Shown piece after piece: positions 3,611 through 60,789 of a stretch of 64,000 bases of DNA (its first letter is position 1; each line of letters starts with the position of its first letter). This stretch comes from an uncultured virus (IMG/VR IMGVR_UViG_3300042887_005898). Taxonomy: Duplodnaviria > Heunggongvirae > Uroviricota > Caudoviricetes. The stretch lies in the IMG/VR virus record IMGVR_UViG_3300042887_005898. One strand, 5' to 3'. Position numbers and translations under genes: made by a program. A model generated the notes under the pieces. That model made no database searches and had not been told where the DNA came from. It saw only the letters and a list, made by a program, of their open reading frames with translations.

Positions 3611-4003
3611 ATGAGTAGAATAAATAAATTGAACTTCGCAGTTATTGCACACGATGCTAAAAAAGCAGATATGGTTGCATTCATTATGAAGAGATTAGAC
3701 TTTTTCAAAAATGTAAACATCTTCGCCACAGGAACAACTGGAACTCACATAGAATTTGCAGGGTGTCAAGTAAACAAATTCAAATCAGGTCCACTTGGTG
3801 GTGATGCTCAAATTGCTGCAATGATCGTTGATAAGAAAATAGATTGTGTTATATTTTTTATAGATCCACTTAGTTCACATCCACATGAAGTAGATGTTCA
3901 AATGTTACTTCGTATTTGTAATGTAACAGACACTCCAATCGCAACCAACTATTCGACATCATCTAAACTTGTAAACTATTTCGAAAATGAAGAATCTAAT
4001 TGA
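3611..4003 (+). CDS. mgsA: Methylglyoxal synthase
   Basis: IAHDAKK, ATGTTG, SGPLGGDAQI, DPLSSHPHEVDV motifs. Confidence 0.96.
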   Translation: MSRINKLNFAVIAHDAKKADMVAFIMKRLDFFKNVNIFATGTTGTHIEFAGCQVNKFKSGPLGGDAQIAAMIVDKKIDCVIFFIDPLSSHPHEVDVQMLLRICNVTDTPIATNYSTSSKLVNYFENEESN

Positions 4004-4721
4004 AATATACAAAGATACTTTTAGACTCAGTTCAGAAATGACTGATTCAGTGACAACTGAACATGATTTTAATGATATAATCGAAGCATCGGAAAAATCT
4101 AATTCCGAAAGTAATATTTATGTTCTAAATTATGATACTGTATCAGCTGGTCTTCAATTATCGAAAATTGGTAAGACTTGTTTGTTAAATATGGCTTCTA
4201 ATAAAAGACCGGGTGGTGGTGTTGAAAACGGAGCTTTAGCACAAGAAGAGTGTTTATTTAGATGTTCTAATTTGTGTCAAACTATAAAGGAAGATTTTTA
4301 TCCTCTTTTATTTGATAGATGTCTTTATACTAAAGATGCTGTGTTTTTCAAAGATCATAAGTATGACTATATAACACCAACAAAATTTGATGTAGTCACA
4401 ATACCAGCTTTGAATCTTTCTTCTAATTCTATAACTTCGGAAAATGATAGTTATAAACTGATCACTAAAGATAAAATTAGATTAATGCTTTCGCTAGCAA
4501 TAAAGAATGATGTTAAGAACATTATATTAGGTGCTTGGGGTTGTGGTGTTTTTAAGAATAATCCAGATACTATTTCAACTTTCTTTCATGAAATACTTAT
4601 CGATGAAAACTATCAAAATCATTTTGATAATATAGTATTTGCTATTATAAATGATTCAAATTCAACAAGTAATAATTTATCCATATTCGAAAAGAAATTT
4701 CAAAAATCAGAAGTATGTTAA
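3987..4721 (+). CDS. TIGR02452/bacterial PARG-like macrodomain (ADP-ribose hydrolase)
   Basis: LNMAS..PGGG...GALAQEECLFRCS and ILGAWGCGVFKN motifs. Confidence 0.9.
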   Translation: MKNLIEIYKDTFRLSSEMTDSVTTEHDFNDIIEASEKSNSESNIYVLNYDTVSAGLQLSKIGKTCLLNMASNKRPGGGVENGALAQEECLFRCSNLCQTIKEDFYPLLFDRCLYTKDAVFFKDHKYDYITPTKFDVVTIPALNLSSNSITSENDSYKLITKDKIRLMLSLAIKNDVKNIILGAWGCGVFKNNPDTISTFFHEILIDENYQNHFDNIVFAIINDSNSTSNNLSIFEKKFQKSEVC

Positions 4722-9385: not shown

Positions 9386-9820
9386 TTAGAGCTTATTTTC
9401 TTTTTTCCAACTTTCCCAGTATTCTGGTCCGTATGAACAAAATATTTCTTCTCCAGCTTTTATCTTTTTAGTCGAAACTAACCAAATCTTACCATCTTCA
9501 TACTCTTGTATTTCAGAGTTATTTTTTCCACCGCCAAATTCAGCATCATTTGCATATTTTGCAACACTATCGGAATTATAAACATCAACGATTCTTCCAT
9601 TTGACATTTCAATCAAATAATTAGATCTTACTCCAGTTAGTTTTTTTATTTCTTCTTTAGTTAATTCTTCGCCGGTAAATTCAACGATTTGTGTATCTTT
9701 TGGTATATCAACTAATGTGAATAAACCGTTTCCGGAATTTGGTATTGAAGATTCTTTAACTTGTAAATCTTTAATACTAACTCCATCTTGAAATTCTTCG
9801 TATAATTTTAAATGTCTCAT
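9386..9820 (-). CDS. SET-domain lysine methyltransferase
   Basis: SSIPNSGNGLFT, AKYAND, KKIKAGEEIFCSYGPEYW; N-terminus MRHLKLYEEF. Confidence 0.9.
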   Translation of the reverse strand: MRHLKLYEEFQDGVSIKDLQVKESSIPNSGNGLFTLVDIPKDTQIVEFTGEELTKEEIKKLTGVRSNYLIEMSNGRIVDVYNSDSVAKYANDAEFGGGKNNSEIQEYEDGKIWLVSTKKIKAGEEIFCSYGPEYWESWKKENKL

Positions 9821-9928
9821 ACGTTATATATAATTTTTTTCAATAAAAATTTGACAAGTTTAAAACTTTATTATATATTTGTATAAAATAAAAAAAAAAG
9901 AGAAAAAAACTTTTTAATATATAAAGAA

Positions 9929-10027
9929 ATGAGAGCAATTCGTAAACATAGTCATTTTAGTAAATCGTTTTCTTGGTTTAATCACCAAGGTTCGGTACTA
10001 AGAGAGTATTGCTCAAATTTGATGTAA
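9929..10027 (+). CDS. Leader peptide of tRNA array 1 (MRAIRKHSHFSKSFSWFNHQGSVLREYCSNLM)
   Basis: 32-aa ORF between promoter motifs and terminator; codons 5-17 all R/K/H/S/F/W. Confidence 0.8.
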   Translation: MRAIRKHSHFSKSFSWFNHQGSVLREYCSNLM

Positions 10028-10093
10028 CATAGAAATACATATAAAGAAATACTACAAGTCCGAACCGAGAAATCAGTTCGGACTTTTTGTTTT
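9989..10093 (+). promoter_or_regulatory. Attenuator 1: antiterminator/terminator switch
   Basis: Terminator AAGTCCGAAC(10056-65)/GTTCGGACTT(10076-85) plus U tract; GGTTCGGtACT(9989-99) can pair with AGTCCGAACC(10057-66). Confidence 0.85.
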
Positions 10094-10097
10094 ATAT

Positions 10098-10170
10098 GGA
10101 CTCGTAGCTTAATTGGGAAAGCACTCCGCTTTTAACGGAGGGAGAGTGGGATCGTAACCCGCCGGGTCCA
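10098..10170 (+). tRNA. tRNA-Lys(UUU)
   Basis: Anticodon arm CTCCG-CT-TTT-AA-CGGAG; cloverleaf. Confidence 0.92.
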
Positions 10171-10179
10171 CTAAGAAAT

Positions 10180-10253
10180 GGTGGCATTGTTGTTAGCGGC
10201 AAGCATTCAACTCTGTGAAAGTTGAGGGATGGGTTCAAATCCCATATGTCACC
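10180..10253 (+). tRNA. tRNA-His(GUG)
   Basis: CAACT-CT-GTG-AA-AGTTG; G-1 and C73 present. Confidence 0.92.
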
Positions 10254-10277
10254 CAAAATTCTGTTAATGACAGAAAT

Positions 10278-10352
10278 GACTTCGTAGCTCAGTTGGTTTA
10301 GAGCACCGCACTTTTAATGCGGGAGTCGTGGGTTCAAGTCCCACCGGGGTCA
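10278..10352 (+). tRNA. tRNA-Lys(UUU), second isodecoder
   Basis: CCGCA-CT-TTT-AA-TGCGG. Confidence 0.95.
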
Positions 10353-10363
10353 CTACTCTCTAT

Positions 10364-10435
10364 GGTCTCGTAACATAGAGGTTTATGTGCTGGTCTGAAA
10401 AACCAGAAATGCCAGATCGTTACTGGCCGAGACCA
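10364..10435 (+). tRNA. tRNA-Phe(GAA)
   Basis: CTGGT-CT-GAA-AA-ACCAG; acceptor GGTCTCG/CGAGACC. Confidence 0.9.
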
Positions 10436-10442
10436 CAAACAC

Positions 10443-10515
10443 GCGTCATTGGTGTAATGGCTTAGCATCTTCGGTTCCAACCCGAAGGGTCAGGGTTCGA
10501 GTCCTTGGTGACGTG
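10443..10515 (+). tRNA. tRNA-Trp(CCA)
   Basis: TTCGG-TT-CCA-AC-CCGAA; G73. Confidence 0.9.
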
Positions 10516-10527
10516 CAAAGAAAAAAT

Positions 10528-10659
10528 GGGGATGTAGCTCAGCGGTAGAGATTAATCTCTCTTTTAAAATTTTACCTCTATAAAAAGAGTGTTGATTAAA
10601 AGAGTTACTTCGTATATTTTGAACATATAAGGTCGTGGGTTCGAATCCCACCATCCCCA
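10528..10659 (+). ncRNA. tRNA-like RNA with ~55-nt structured insertion in the D region (anticodon possibly UGA)
   Basis: Perfect acceptor GGGGATG/CATCCCC, T arm GTGGG-TTCGAAT-CCCAC, arm TATAT-TT-TGA-AC-ATATA. Confidence 0.7.
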
Positions 10660-10666
10660 CTAATTT

Positions 10667-10749
10667 TCCTCTCATATCGGCCGTGTCTTCGAAACATGAG
10701 TACCGTAACGGATAATGAAAAATGGGGGTTCGAATCCCTCTGAGAGGAC
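10667..10749 (+). ncRNA. Atypical tRNA-Arg(UCG)-like RNA, D-arm reduced, long variable region
   Basis: Acceptor TCCTCTCA/TGAGAGGA; CGTGT-CT-TCG-AA-ACATG; T arm GGGGG-TTCGAAT-CCCTC. Confidence 0.65.
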
Positions 10750-10758
10750 TAAATATTT

Positions 10759-10845
10759 GGAGAGTGTCCGGTTGGTCGAGGATGGCGTCTTGAAAACGTT
10801 CTGGGTGTAAAAGCTTCTGGGGTTCGAATCCCTAATTCTCCGCCA
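10759..10845 (+). tRNA. tRNA-Ser(UGA)
   Basis: GGCGT-CT-TGA-AA-ACGTT, long variable arm, G73-CCA. Confidence 0.9.
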
Positions 10846-10851
10846 AAAAAT

Positions 10852-10936
10852 GGAAGATTGTCAGAGTGGTCTATTGTATCTCTTTGCTAAAGAGATGGAC
10901 GTAAAAGTTCCACAGGTTCGAATCCTGTATCTTCCG
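10852..10936 (+). tRNA. tRNA-Ser(GCU)
   Basis: TCTCT-TT-GCT-AA-AGAGA, long variable arm, G73. Confidence 0.93.
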
Positions 10937-10943
10937 CTAATAA

Positions 10944-11663
10944 TTAAGGTTTAATATTCAATTTAATTGACTCTGTGTCTCCTATTTTTGAATAAACCGC
11001 ACTTACAAATTCAGAACCTTTATTCATTAGGTCAATACACATTTTAGCACTACTACTATCACCTTTATCTAAATCCTCTTTTGCAGTACTTATAATCTTA
11101 TTTGCAGTAACTATTGCTGAATCTGCTATATTCACAGCATTCTGACCTAAGTTCTCGATCTCAATATTACCATCCTTCAAATCAACAAGATGAGCGATTG
11201 CTTTATTGATCTCCATTAAATCTAAATCAGTTTTACCTTTAATCATATTAAGCCAACCAATAGCAACATTAATTTGTTCATCTGGTATAGGTTGTCCTTT
11301 TGATTGTGCATAAGCAGATGATGTAGAAACCATAAGTAAAATTACGATAATAAGAGTAATGATTATCACCTTAAAAAGAACTGGATGTTTTTCTTTCCAT
11401 TTTGAAACAGTTGAGATTACCCACTCAAATACTTTTTTAAATTTATTGATTATTGCAAATCCAATTTTAGAAGCCTGAACTATAAATGAATAAAGCACAC
11501 TTACAATTTTATCTTTTATATAATTTGTAAAATCAATAATAGATTCATTGAAAACCTCTAAATTTAAATAATCAATGTATTCTGATTCAGTTATTTTTCC
11601 TTCTATGAACTGAATGGTCTTCAAATCAGTACTAGTAAAATCGTTAAATTTAAGTATTTTCAT
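10944..11663 (-). CDS. Hypothetical protein with central TM helix, possible virion protein
   Basis: MKILKFNDF N-terminus; hydrophobic VIIITLIIVILLMV. Confidence 0.7.
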   Translation of the reverse strand: MKILKFNDFTSTDLKTIQFIEGKITESEYIDYLNLEVFNESIIDFTNYIKDKIVSVLYSFIVQASKIGFAIINKFKKVFEWVISTVSKWKEKHPVLFKVIIITLIIVILLMVSTSSAYAQSKGQPIPDEQINVAIGWLNMIKGKTDLDLMEINKAIAHLVDLKDGNIEIENLGQNAVNIADSAIVTANKIISTAKEDLDKGDSSSAKMCIDLMNKGSEFVSAVYSKIGDTESIKLNIKP

Positions 11664-12873: not shown

Positions 12874-13446
12874 ATGAAAGTTATATTTCTCGATCACGAT
12901 GGTGTTATCTGTTTATCAGACAACTGGGGAACTCGTTTTAACAAACAAAAAAAAGTTAGAACTAAAATGAGTCAGTCGGTTATGTCTATGCCAGTTGATG
13001 CTCGTTTCGACAATTTTGATAAAAAAGCAATAAAAGTCTTAAATGAAATATTAGAGACAACTGATGTAGAAATCGTTGTTTCTTCTGATTGGAAAACTTG
13101 GGCTTCAGTTGAAGAAATGGGAGATTACTATGAAAGTCAAGGAATTAAAAAACGACCAATTGACTTCACAGGAAATGTAATTGATAGAAAAAAAATCAAA
13201 TGGCACAGAAATTGGGACTTAGAAGGAACAAGGAGTTTAGAGATTCAAGCTTGGCTTGAACAACATCCTGAAGTAACACATTGGGTTGCTGTTGACGATT
13301 TAAGATTGGGAAAGACTGGTTTAGATTATGCCGTTGAGTTTTATCACGAGTGGGGATTGGTTAATTTTGTTTATACTCCATTAAGCAATCAAGGAATTAA
13401 ACAATCTGGTGTTAAAGATAAAATAATAAATTTTTTAACTGACTAA
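12874..13446 (+). CDS. HAD-family phosphatase (HAD_SAK_2-like, RNA-repair associated)
   Basis: IFLDHDGV, IVVSSDWK, RSLEIQAWL, WVAVDD. Confidence 0.85.
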   Translation: MKVIFLDHDGVICLSDNWGTRFNKQKKVRTKMSQSVMSMPVDARFDNFDKKAIKVLNEILETTDVEIVVSSDWKTWASVEEMGDYYESQGIKKRPIDFTGNVIDRKKIKWHRNWDLEGTRSLEIQAWLEQHPEVTHWVAVDDLRLGKTGLDYAVEFYHEWGLVNFVYTPLSNQGIKQSGVKDKIINFLTD

Positions 13447-13641: not shown

Positions 13642-14565
<924 letters not shown>

Positions 14566-14572
14566 CTAATTT

Positions 14573-14680
14573 GGCCCGGTCGTCTAGCGGTGTTTGTTTG
14601 AAAAAACAGATGTTGGATTTTCCATCAGGACTATCGACTTTTAAGTCTGATAAACAGAGGTTCGAATCCTCTCCGGGCTA
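14573..14680 (+). ncRNA. tRNA-like RNA (Glu-type body) with D-loop insertion and distorted anticodon arm
   Basis: GGCCCGG/CCGGGCT acceptor; TCGTCTAGCGG-[insert]-AGGAC; T arm AGAGG-TTCGAAT-CCTCT. Confidence 0.7.
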
Positions 14681-14691
14681 CAAAAAAAAAT

Positions 14692-14805
14692 GGCGTGTTC
14701 GTCTAGCGGACAATCTCTTTAAGAGAGAACTCGAAACCGAAAGGTCGAAGGTTTAGGACCACCACTTCACTGTTGGTGACATTGGTTCGAATCCAATACA
14801 CGCTA
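14692..14805 (+). ncRNA. tRNA-like RNA (Glu-type body) with D-loop insertion and 9-nt anticodon loop
   Basis: GGCGTGT/ACACGCT acceptor; TCGTCTAGCGG-[two hairpins]-AGGAC; CACCA-CTTCACTGT-TGGTG. Confidence 0.7.
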
Positions 14806-14811
14806 CAACAT

Positions 14812-14883
14812 TGCGGGATAGAGCAGAGGTAGCTCGCAAGGCTCATAACCTTGAGGTCACAGGTTCGAATCCTGTTCCCGCTA
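14812..14883 (+). tRNA. tRNA-Met(CAU), initiator-like
   Basis: CAAGG-CT-CAT-AA-CCTTG; 1:72 mismatch and A11:U24. Confidence 0.9.
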
Positions 14884-14899
14884 CTAAATCTAAAATTTA

Positions 14900-60266: not shown

Positions 60267-60328
60267 AAAAATCATTAGGAAAGGAAACTTTTATAATATA
60301 TATTTGTATAACTTAAAATAGAAAAAAA

Positions 60329-60403
60329 ATGAAAGTTGTTAATAACATATCAATCATAGGGAACGGCACTATAGCGGGTGGCCTTCTTTTGCTGATTGGT
60401 TAA
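60329..60403 (+). CDS. Leader peptide of tRNA array 2 (MKVVNNISIIGNGTIAGGLLLLIG)
   Basis: 24-aa ORF; ATA x3, GGG, GGC x2, GGT, GCG before the antiterminator strand. Confidence 0.8.
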   Translation: MKVVNNISIIGNGTIAGGLLLLIG

Positions 60404-60462
60404 GTATTGACTCTTTCATTCAAGATACTTTAAACCCAATCAGTGATGATTGGGTTTTTTTT
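60391..60462 (+). promoter_or_regulatory. Attenuator 2: antiterminator/terminator switch
   Basis: Terminator AAACCCAATCA(60432-42)-GTGA-TGATTGGGTTT plus U tract; CTGATTGG(60392-99) pairs with CCAATCAG(60436-43). Confidence 0.85.
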
Positions 60463-60471
60463 ATTTTATAT

Positions 60472-60545
60472 TGGTGAGTAGCTTAAACGGTAGAAGCACC
60501 TGTCTTATACACAGGAGAAAGTGGGATCGTTACCCACCTCACCAA
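60472..60545 (+). tRNA. tRNA-Ile(UAU)
   Basis: CCTGT-CT-TAT-AC-ACAGG; acceptor TGGTGAG/CTCACCA. Confidence 0.9.
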
Positions 60546-60552
60546 CTAAACT

Positions 60553-60625
60553 GCAGAAGTGGTGTTAATGGTTAGCATGTGAGACTTCCACTCTCAAGGT
60601 GCCAGTTCGAATCTGGTCTTCTGCT
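60553..60625 (+). tRNA. tRNA-Gly(UCC)
   Basis: TGAGA-CT-TCC-AC-TCTCA; U73. Confidence 0.93.
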
Positions 60626-60629
60626 CAAT

Positions 60630-60702
60630 GCGAGAGTAGCTCAATAGGTAGAGTACCACCTTGCCAAGGTGGATGTTGCCGGATCGTACCCGGTCTCTCG
60701 CT
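60630..60702 (+). tRNA. tRNA-Gly(GCC)
   Basis: CCACC-TT-GCC-AA-GGTGG; U73. Confidence 0.93.
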
Positions 60703-60715
60703 CTTTATAAATAAT

Positions 60716-60789
60716 GGGTCATTGGTGAAGCTGGCTATCACACAAGATTTGCAATCTTGAGTCACGAGTTCGAAGCTCGTATGTATCCA
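60716..60789 (+). tRNA. tRNA-Ala(UGC)
   Basis: CAAGA-TT-TGC-AA-TCTTG; G3:U70; one-base bulge in acceptor stem. Confidence 0.85.

Follow-up and report, generated by a model that had tools for sequence, protein, structure and literature searches.

Amino-acid operons of Escherichia coli and Salmonella are controlled by leader-peptide attenuators (trpL, hisL, leuL, pheL and thrL, and the multivalent ilvGMEDA leader), and in E. coli the pheM leader of pheST is an attenuator of phenylalanyl-transfer RNA (tRNA) synthetase. Here, we describe a unit of related layout that precedes phage tRNA genes. It lies within a 64,000-nucleotide (nt) stretch of DNA, hereafter the window, from an uncultured virus of the Caudoviricetes (IMG/VR record IMGVR_UViG_3300042887_005898). 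This unit, referred to as unit 1, contains promoter motifs, a leader open reading frame (ORF), an intrinsic terminator with a competing antiterminator, and an array of tRNA genes. The leader codons match the array behind them in a frame- and anticodon-specific manner, and both helices are conserved and covary among relatives. The feature is real, and a chance origin is very unlikely. With a probability of about 80%, unit 1 is a ribosome-mediated (leader-peptide) transcription attenuator that regulates tRNA genes. An initial annotation, made from the letters of the window, had proposed attenuation of the trp/his type at this locus. That logic is supported in silico, as the ORF, the regulatory codons, the terminator and a mutually exclusive antiterminator are all present.

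The nearest functional precedent is pheST, which likewise controls a decoding component for the codons that it senses. However, pheST is chromosomal, has a synthetase as its target and senses a single amino acid, and its output restores charging, whereas that of the phage unit would restore tRNA supply. With the amino-acid operon attenuators, unit 1 shares a short leader with regulatory codons, an intrinsic terminator, and an antiterminator that uses the 5′ arm of the terminator. We propose that ribosome position picks the helix here as well, and that one leader senses several amino acids, as in the thr and ilv leaders. Unlike these attenuators, the phage unit would regulate tRNAs rather than enzymes, with a product that feeds back on the sensor. 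It is also phage-borne, with one leader per tRNA sub-array and a common promoter and start module. In unit 1, the stop codon follows the antiterminator strand at a distance of 26 nt, and in the folding model a ribosome at the stop leaves this strand uncovered. The general mechanism of leader-peptide attenuation is outlined in PMC1183508. T-box riboswitches resemble unit 1 in linking a specific tRNA state to terminator read-through via a competing antiterminator, but they bind uncharged tRNA directly and have no ORF, whereas in the phage unit the ribosome is the proposed sensor and no specifier structure was detected by cmscan at E ≤ 1. At this threshold, the Rfam cmscan of positions 9700–11100 returned no leader family (Trp, His, Leu, Thr and others) and no T-box. 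Its other matches belonged to the tRNA clan or, below the cut-offs and over the terminator and tRNA genes, to SdsR (25.7 bits), MicC, sar and two plastid untranslated region (UTR) families.

Large phages with dozens of tRNAs, like the relatives analysed here, have been described, and huge phages of more than 634 kilobases (kb) that are predicted to infect Bacteroidetes carry up to 67 tRNAs (Al-Shayeb et al. 2020, PMC7162821). Its main text contains neither 'attenuat' nor 'leader' (0 occurrences each) and describes no regulation of the arrays. Full-text literature searches, whose coverage leaves many subscription journals outside, returned no paper on leader-peptide attenuation of tRNA genes. 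Attenuation is textbook knowledge for amino-acid operons; tRNA genes as the target, with the sensed molecule as the product, would be a new target and a new feedback layout. It would also explain how the many tRNA genes of large phages, usually treated as constitutively expressed, are controlled.

Organisation of unit 1

Unit 1 has the following features.

9850–9881, plus strand: promoter, with TTTG / TTGACA (9850–9856) and TATATTTG (9874–9881)
9910–9928, plus strand: conserved AU-rich block of the 5′ UTR, CTTTTTAATATATAAAGAA, adjoining the start codon; putative translation start region or second promoter
9929–10027, plus strand: leader ORF of 32 codons, MRAIRKHSHFSKSFSWFNHQGSVLREYCSNLM
9941–9979, plus strand: regulatory run R K H S H F S K S F S W F (codons 5–17; 13 codons without interruption)
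9972–9989, plus strand: small hairpin CTTGGT/ACCAAG, which spans the Trp-Phe codons, abuts the antiterminator strand and is present in the minimum-energy fold
9989–9999, plus strand: antiterminator 5′ strand GGTTCGGtACT, which pairs with 10057–10066
10005–10010, plus strand: 5′ strand of the inner antiterminator helix, AGTATT
10048–10053, plus strand: 3′ strand of the inner antiterminator helix, AATACT
10056–10093, plus strand: intrinsic terminator, with a hairpin at 10056–10085 (−16.1 kcal/mol) and a T run at 10086–10093
10098–10516, plus strand: tRNA-Lys(UUU), His(GUG), Lys(UUU), Phe(GAA) and Trp(CCA), from ARAGORN and Rfam
10528–10660, plus strand: 133-nt tRNA-like gene in which the acceptor and T arms are normal, the D arm is followed by an inserted hairpin of about 48 nt, and the anticodon-like loop reads TTTGAAC
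10668–10750, plus strand: tRNA-like gene with a long extra arm and the loop CTTCGAA (UCG, Arg-like; anticodon read by eye)
10759–10937, plus strand: tRNA-Ser(UGA) and tRNA-Ser(GCU), from ARAGORN

The 32-codon ORF, its codons 5–17, the terminator, the complementarity of GGTTCGGtACT to the terminator 5′ arm and the nested AGTATT/AATACT pairing had all been reported in the initial annotation, and each was recovered here, the nested pairing both in the sequence and in the minimum-energy fold. The run of R, K, H, S, F and W codons is the longest of its kind over all six frames of the window, in which the next longest has 11 codons. Runs of 13 are expected about 0.04 times by chance, and none of 100 shuffles of the window reached this length. 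Under standard wobble rules, the anticodons of the unit 1 array read 11 of the 13 codons in the run.

Leader codons match the arrays that they precede

By blastn, the unit 1 leader has homologues in three huge phages, all uncultured: LR745206 (634 kb), LR756502 (642 kb) and LR756500 (462 kb). In each of them, the leader again lies ahead of homologous arrays. From the window and the tRNA regions of these three genomes we collected 19 units, defined as terminators that precede tRNAs; in each, a hairpin and a T run make up a canonical intrinsic terminator. A further 12 units from seven IMG/VR contigs brought the set to 31. The leaders of LR745206 and LR756502 are rich in P/D/Q, Q, E/Y, S/R, N/L/V/I/T and I/G/A, and the arrays behind them encode exactly those isotypes. 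The following leader segments, the last two of which are from LR756500, illustrate this pattern.

PVNPQPQDQDP, followed by tRNA Pro / Asp
QQIQQQQ, followed by tRNA Gln (three genes)
YESYYEE, followed by tRNA Glu / Tyr
SKSSSRSSS, followed by tRNA Arg-ACG / Ser
NLNMTMNLTLNVVNITL, followed by tRNA Asn / Leu / Val / Ile / Thr / Met / Arg
STYPLGQAQTLGTPPITG, followed by tRNA Ala / Leu / Pro / Tyr / Gln / Gly / Thr
HIIHIWEHLLEEV, followed by tRNA His / Glu / Val / Trp / Leu

The match between leaders and arrays is specific. Both in LR745206 and in LR756502, each with seven units, the true assignment of leaders to arrays was the single best of 5040 permutations, whether matches were scored by amino acid or, under standard wobble rules, by anticodon. 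The match is also confined to the reading frame of the leaders: the share of codons that the array can read was highest in the ORF frame in all 31 units (0.46, versus 0.12 and 0.11 in the other frames). It extends to the choice between synonymous codons. Among Ile codons, ATA accounts for 10 of 16 before arrays with only Ile-UAU and for 0 of 8 before arrays with only Ile-GAU (p = 0.006), and CGN makes up 11 of 14 Arg codons before arrays with Arg-ACG or UCG and 0 of 4 before those with Arg-UCU or CCU (p = 0.011). The enrichment of leaders in the codons of their own arrays, which the initial annotation had proposed to test across related phages, was thus borne out by the permutation, frame and synonymous-codon tests. 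In the window, the K/H/F/W and S/R units are fused, and the extra Ser codons that might accompany this fusion gave no clean signal, because leaders of split arrays also carry one to three Ser codons.

Two Gln leaders, MTTTQQIQQQQINQTD (L027:3638–3750, LR745206) and MTTSFQQQQQQQINRTD (L035:2937–3045, LR756502), start about 45 nt past a tRNA and lack a promoter of their own. They would thus be translated from a tRNA precursor transcript. Such leaders would split one long array into separately gated sub-arrays.

Conservation of the unit 1 leader family

A search pattern built from codons 9–18 of the unit 1 leader retrieved 5 IMG/VR and 54 metagenome loci, and 62 loci were considered in all. We removed four without a complete leader ORF (two at a contig end and two without an in-frame ATG), eight duplicates and three without a terminator. 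In these last three, the contig ends (L084), the pattern lies inside a long ORF (L092) or a methylase-like ORF replaces the 3′ part (L074). The 47 distinct ORF-plus-terminator sequences that were kept make up the family alignment (A1), and in all 47 the ATG is present and the frame is open. In 44 of the 45 members with enough flanking sequence, the start of a tRNA lies no more than 250 nt downstream. These tRNA genes were typed as Lys (94), Phe (63), His (53), Trp (22), Ser (15) or Arg (13); two were untyped, and no other isotype occurred.

Codons 1–19 contain no indels, whereas indels of 2, 3, 4 and 6 nt occur directly before the conserved segment GTTCGGTACT. These indels change the frame of the distal ORF while the nucleotides stay the same, which means that this segment is selected as RNA and not as peptide. 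This bears on the alternative that the small ORFs encode functional micropeptides, or are untranslated, and that the match between codons and arrays is without regulatory significance. The unit 1 leader family indeed shows good peptide conservation over its first 19 residues, and an N-terminal M-K/T-T-I-N motif is common to leaders of different arrays. However, beyond the first five residues no peptide is common to leaders of different arrays, and the C-terminal halves switch frame between subfamilies with the RNA sequence unchanged. Moreover, such ORFs would not be expected to match their arrays better than in any other of the 5040 permutations, as they do in each of two genomes, nor to match best in their own frame in all 31 units. 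We therefore regard this explanation as highly improbable, and attenuation by a translated leader as the better account of the conserved ORFs.

At two metagenome loci (L074 and L087), an ORF that starts like a DNA methyltransferase (SPPY motif) takes the place of the terminator and of the distal part of a K/H/F/W leader. Judged by their sequence, these loci are probably rearranged, disabled units.

Antiterminator and terminator helices

The antiterminator duplex of unit 1 has a predicted energy of −15.2 kcal/mol, compared with −7.0 ± 2.0 kcal/mol in 500 dinucleotide shuffles (p = 0.004, z = −4.2). The terminators of the 19 units differ considerably, yet in every unit the distal part of the leader pairs with the 5′ arm of its own terminator better than dinucleotide shuffles do (mean z = −2.0).

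Covariation in both helices, which the initial annotation had proposed to test, is seen in the family alignment as compensatory change. For the antiterminator, 91.8% of the cells are paired and 5 of 10 pairs are changed on both sides; none of the pairing measures was reached by any of 500 shuffles, and sliding the partner columns collapses the pairing. In place of GTTCGG/CCGAAC, locus L060 has GAACTTGG/CCAAGTTC and LR756502 has ATTCGA/TCGAAT. For the terminator, 97.9% of the cells are paired and 7 of 10 pairs are changed on both sides. The inner antiterminator helix has a counterpart in relatives, where, read by eye, GTATTG pairs with CAATAT in a shifted register. In the small hairpin at 9972–9989 only TGG/CCA is conserved in the family, and this hairpin is a candidate pause or anti-antiterminator element.

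Modelled polarity of the proposed switch

To model the passage of a ribosome, a 28-nt mask was moved stepwise along the ORF of each leader, and the RNA as far as the terminator loop was folded for each position. In 16 of the 19 units, the terminator 5′ arm is sequestered (probability P ≥ 0.5) with the A site on cognate codons and freed (P ≤ 0.3) further along. In unit 1, P under equilibrium folding falls from 0.71, for a ribosome on cognate codons, to 0.06 once it has reached codon 20. The polarity obtained by masked folding is thus of the trp type, in which stalling leads to read-through, as had been predicted from the sequence.

Several results weigh against this account, and the first group concerns the switch itself. 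With the modelled ribosome at the stop codon of unit 1, the antiterminator still forms (P = 0.79), because its strand lies upstream of the stop by the 26 nt noted above, and P ≤ 0.3 at the stop codon is seen in only 6 of the 19 units. The earlier proposal that a ribosome reading through the leader masks the antiterminator therefore stands with the A site on codons 17–22 and fails at the stop codon. As the antiterminator is unmasked at the stop, the outcome must be a kinetic decision, set by the position of the ribosome at the time the 5′ arm emerges from the polymerase. Steric exclusion by the ribosome inside the 57-nt loop possibly adds to it; masked folding describes equilibrium only, and both kinetic positioning and steric exclusion lie beyond its reach. 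The ribosome-free RNA of unit 1 also forms the antiterminator (P = 0.69), so that the default of an untranslated leader would be read-through. Across the family, the antiterminator is present in the ribosome-free minimum-energy fold of only 24 of 47 members, and a simple two-state equilibrium reading was dropped for this reason. Translation of the leader, coupling of translation and transcription, polarity in vivo and the physiological trigger are inferred.

The second group concerns the statistics and the codons. Antiterminator complementarity is individually significant (p < 0.05) in only 7 of the 19 units. When each leader was paired with all 19 terminators, its own ranked first in only 4 of 19 cases (mean rank about 4.6); this weak result arises because many terminators share AACCC...GGGTT and are homologous, and the cross-pairing test was replaced by the dinucleotide shuffles. 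The conservation of codons 9–18 is partly by construction, as the search pattern fixes 21 bases there. The observed match score of the pooled units was reached by 0 of 100,000 shuffles, for 19 as well as for 31 units, but these pooled p-values overstate independence because the units of LR745206 and LR756502 are homologous; the within-genome permutations are free of this problem. Leader codons are also not cognate throughout, as tRNAs of the array do not serve the N-terminal M-(K/R/T)-T-I-N motif or several codons for Asn and Thr. The run in unit 1 had been described as coding for exactly the amino acids of the array. At the level of anticodons, the array can read 11 of its codons; CGT is not read by a UCG anticodon and TCT is unmatched under standard wobble rules.

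The behaviour at the stop codon also fits an alternative in which translation of the leader acts on the tRNA precursor, whose processing or stability it would control, for instance through protection from RNases, and the hairpin is a constitutive leaky terminator or a processing signal. In the folding model, the antiterminator is unmasked at the stop codon in 13 of 19 units, and the Gln units in L027 and L035 would be read from a tRNA precursor transcript, both of which this alternative would accommodate. Under processing alone, however, the complementarity of leader and 5′ arm in 19 of 19 units and the compensatory changes would serve no purpose, and every unit has a canonical intrinsic terminator of hairpin and T run. 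We consider this alternative improbable and retain transcription attenuation.

A model for control of tRNA supply

Under attenuation, transcription would start from the promoter near 9850–9881, and the 32-codon leader would be translated as RNA polymerase nears the terminator. Where aminoacyl-tRNAs for the Lys, His, Phe, Trp or Ser codons are scarce, slow decoding would hold the ribosome upstream. Positions 9989–9999 could then pair with 10057–10066, helped by the inner helix, no terminator would form, and the array would be transcribed. With fast decoding, the ribosome would reach codons 17–22 and beyond and cover or displace the antiterminator strand; the hairpin at 10056–10085 would then form, and transcription would stop at the T run. 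Such a unit would be multivalent, as a shortage of any single tRNA of the set could open the array. As the output is the very set of tRNAs being measured, this would amount to negative-feedback control of supply.

The same switch could instead report amino-acid starvation, that is, the level of charging, and tune tRNA output to the nutrition of the host. A stalled ribosome cannot tell a missing tRNA from an uncharged one, as is established for the trp and his attenuators (PMC1183508). However, more tRNA does not relieve a shortage of amino acids, and the feedback by the product would be purposeless; the anticodon-level match (ATA with UAU, CGN with ACG) also fits the sensing of tRNA species better. 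A starvation sensor thus seems unlikely to us. The anticodon-level match and the nature of the product instead favour tRNA supply as the relevant variable.

More tentatively, we suggest a modular control of tRNA supply across these genomes, which we consider possible rather than probable. Each sub-array would be gated by its own codon-matched test ORF, and only the tRNAs that run short would be transcribed, in real time. If true, this would let the phage outrun both host tRNA turnover and tRNA-cleaving defences, and the leaders would be natural, reprogrammable sensors of individual tRNA species. As a trigger, the initial annotation had proposed anticodon nucleases or starvation; these are candidates, and a role in countering tRNA-cleaving defences is plausible. 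Attenuation would tie phage tRNA arrays mechanistically to tRNA depletion in infection. The dozens of natural variants, in which different codon sets are carried on one chassis, offer material for studying how attenuators read decoding speed, and they could supply parts for switches that respond to particular tRNAs.

Promoter and start module

The promoter motifs ahead of the 32-codon ORF, which were already part of the initial annotation, are present in the window and conserved in homologues. A sigma-70-like site, TTGACA-17-TATATT, matches at 11 of 12 positions at 9851–9879 in the promoter scan, and the motif block is kept ahead of homologous leaders. The call rests on this conservation, because the number of sigma-70-like sites in the region (6) shows no excess over shuffles (6.4). 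The block is repeated about 150 times per genome in LR745206 and LR756502, and we take it to resemble the Bacteroidota −33/−7 consensus.

Leaders of unrelated arrays have in common an AU-rich block, TTTAATATATAAG, before the ATG, and M-(K/R/T)-(T/N)-(I/M/L)-N as their first residues. These sequences suggest that the leader families have one start module in common, with runs of array-specific codons grafted onto it. The tRNA-Met genes of the related phages (L025:2870–2942 and L033, about 2838–2910) have the common promoter block but neither a leader ORF nor a terminator.

A second unit in the window

The window contains a further unit of the same design, with these features.

60299–60306, plus strand: promoter box TATATTTG, identical to the motif of unit 1
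60329–60403, plus strand: leader ORF MKVVNNISIIGNGTIAGGLLLLIG, rich in Ile, Gly and Ala
60392–60400, plus strand: antiterminator strand CTGATTGGT, which overlaps the end of the ORF and its stop codon
60433–60467, plus strand: terminator, with a hairpin at 60433–60456 (−13.7 kcal/mol) and a T run
60472–60788, plus strand: tRNA-Ile(UAU), Gly(UCC), Gly(GCC) and Ala(UGC), from ARAGORN

The design of leader and terminator is the general layout of tRNA arrays in this phage group, this second unit included, and not unique to unit 1. A pattern scan of IMG/VR for the Ile/Gly/Ala leader gave four matches, one of which is a real unit and three of which lie inside long ORFs.

tRNA-like genes and neighbouring genes

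The nine tRNA or tRNA-like genes originally listed for unit 1 were recovered in part: seven are called by ARAGORN, and the other two are backed by homology and partial tRNA features. Rfam scores six of the seven as tRNA above its cut-off, and gives Ser-UGA only a sub-threshold tRNA-Sec match. The element at 10528–10660 scores below the cut-off as transfer-messenger RNA (30 bits versus 47), and its 3′ half scores 30.1 bits as tRNA. It is found at the same place, with 80–97% identity, in at least 12 related contigs. The element at 10668–10750 received no tRNA call from ARAGORN or Rfam; over 63 nt it is 87% identical to an element of LR745206 that itself scores 35.6 bits as tRNA.

A GOLLD RNA (Rfam RF02032, 277 bits versus a cut-off of 150) lies on the plus strand at 14157–14562, directly upstream of two long, insert-bearing tRNA-like genes and a tRNA-Met (14812–14884). 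This group spans 14577–14884 and has no leader ORF and no terminator. Between the unit 1 array and the GOLLD RNA lies an ORF (12874–13443, plus strand) with a match to Pfam HAD_SAK_2, the HAD domain of 'Swiss Army Knife' RNA-repair proteins (E = 1e-22); on the strength of this domain, it may act in tRNA repair. Directly upstream of the unit 1 leader, and divergent from it, is a gene for a SET-domain protein (9389–9820, minus strand), and a microbial-type poly(ADP-ribose) glycohydrolase is encoded nearby (3987–4718, plus strand); both are unusual phage cargo. The window also encodes S-adenosylhomocysteine (AdoHcy) hydrolase, thymidylate synthase, GroEL, DnaJ, the small chain of ribonucleotide reductase and adenylosuccinate synthetase, an auxiliary gene set that is typical of very large phages.

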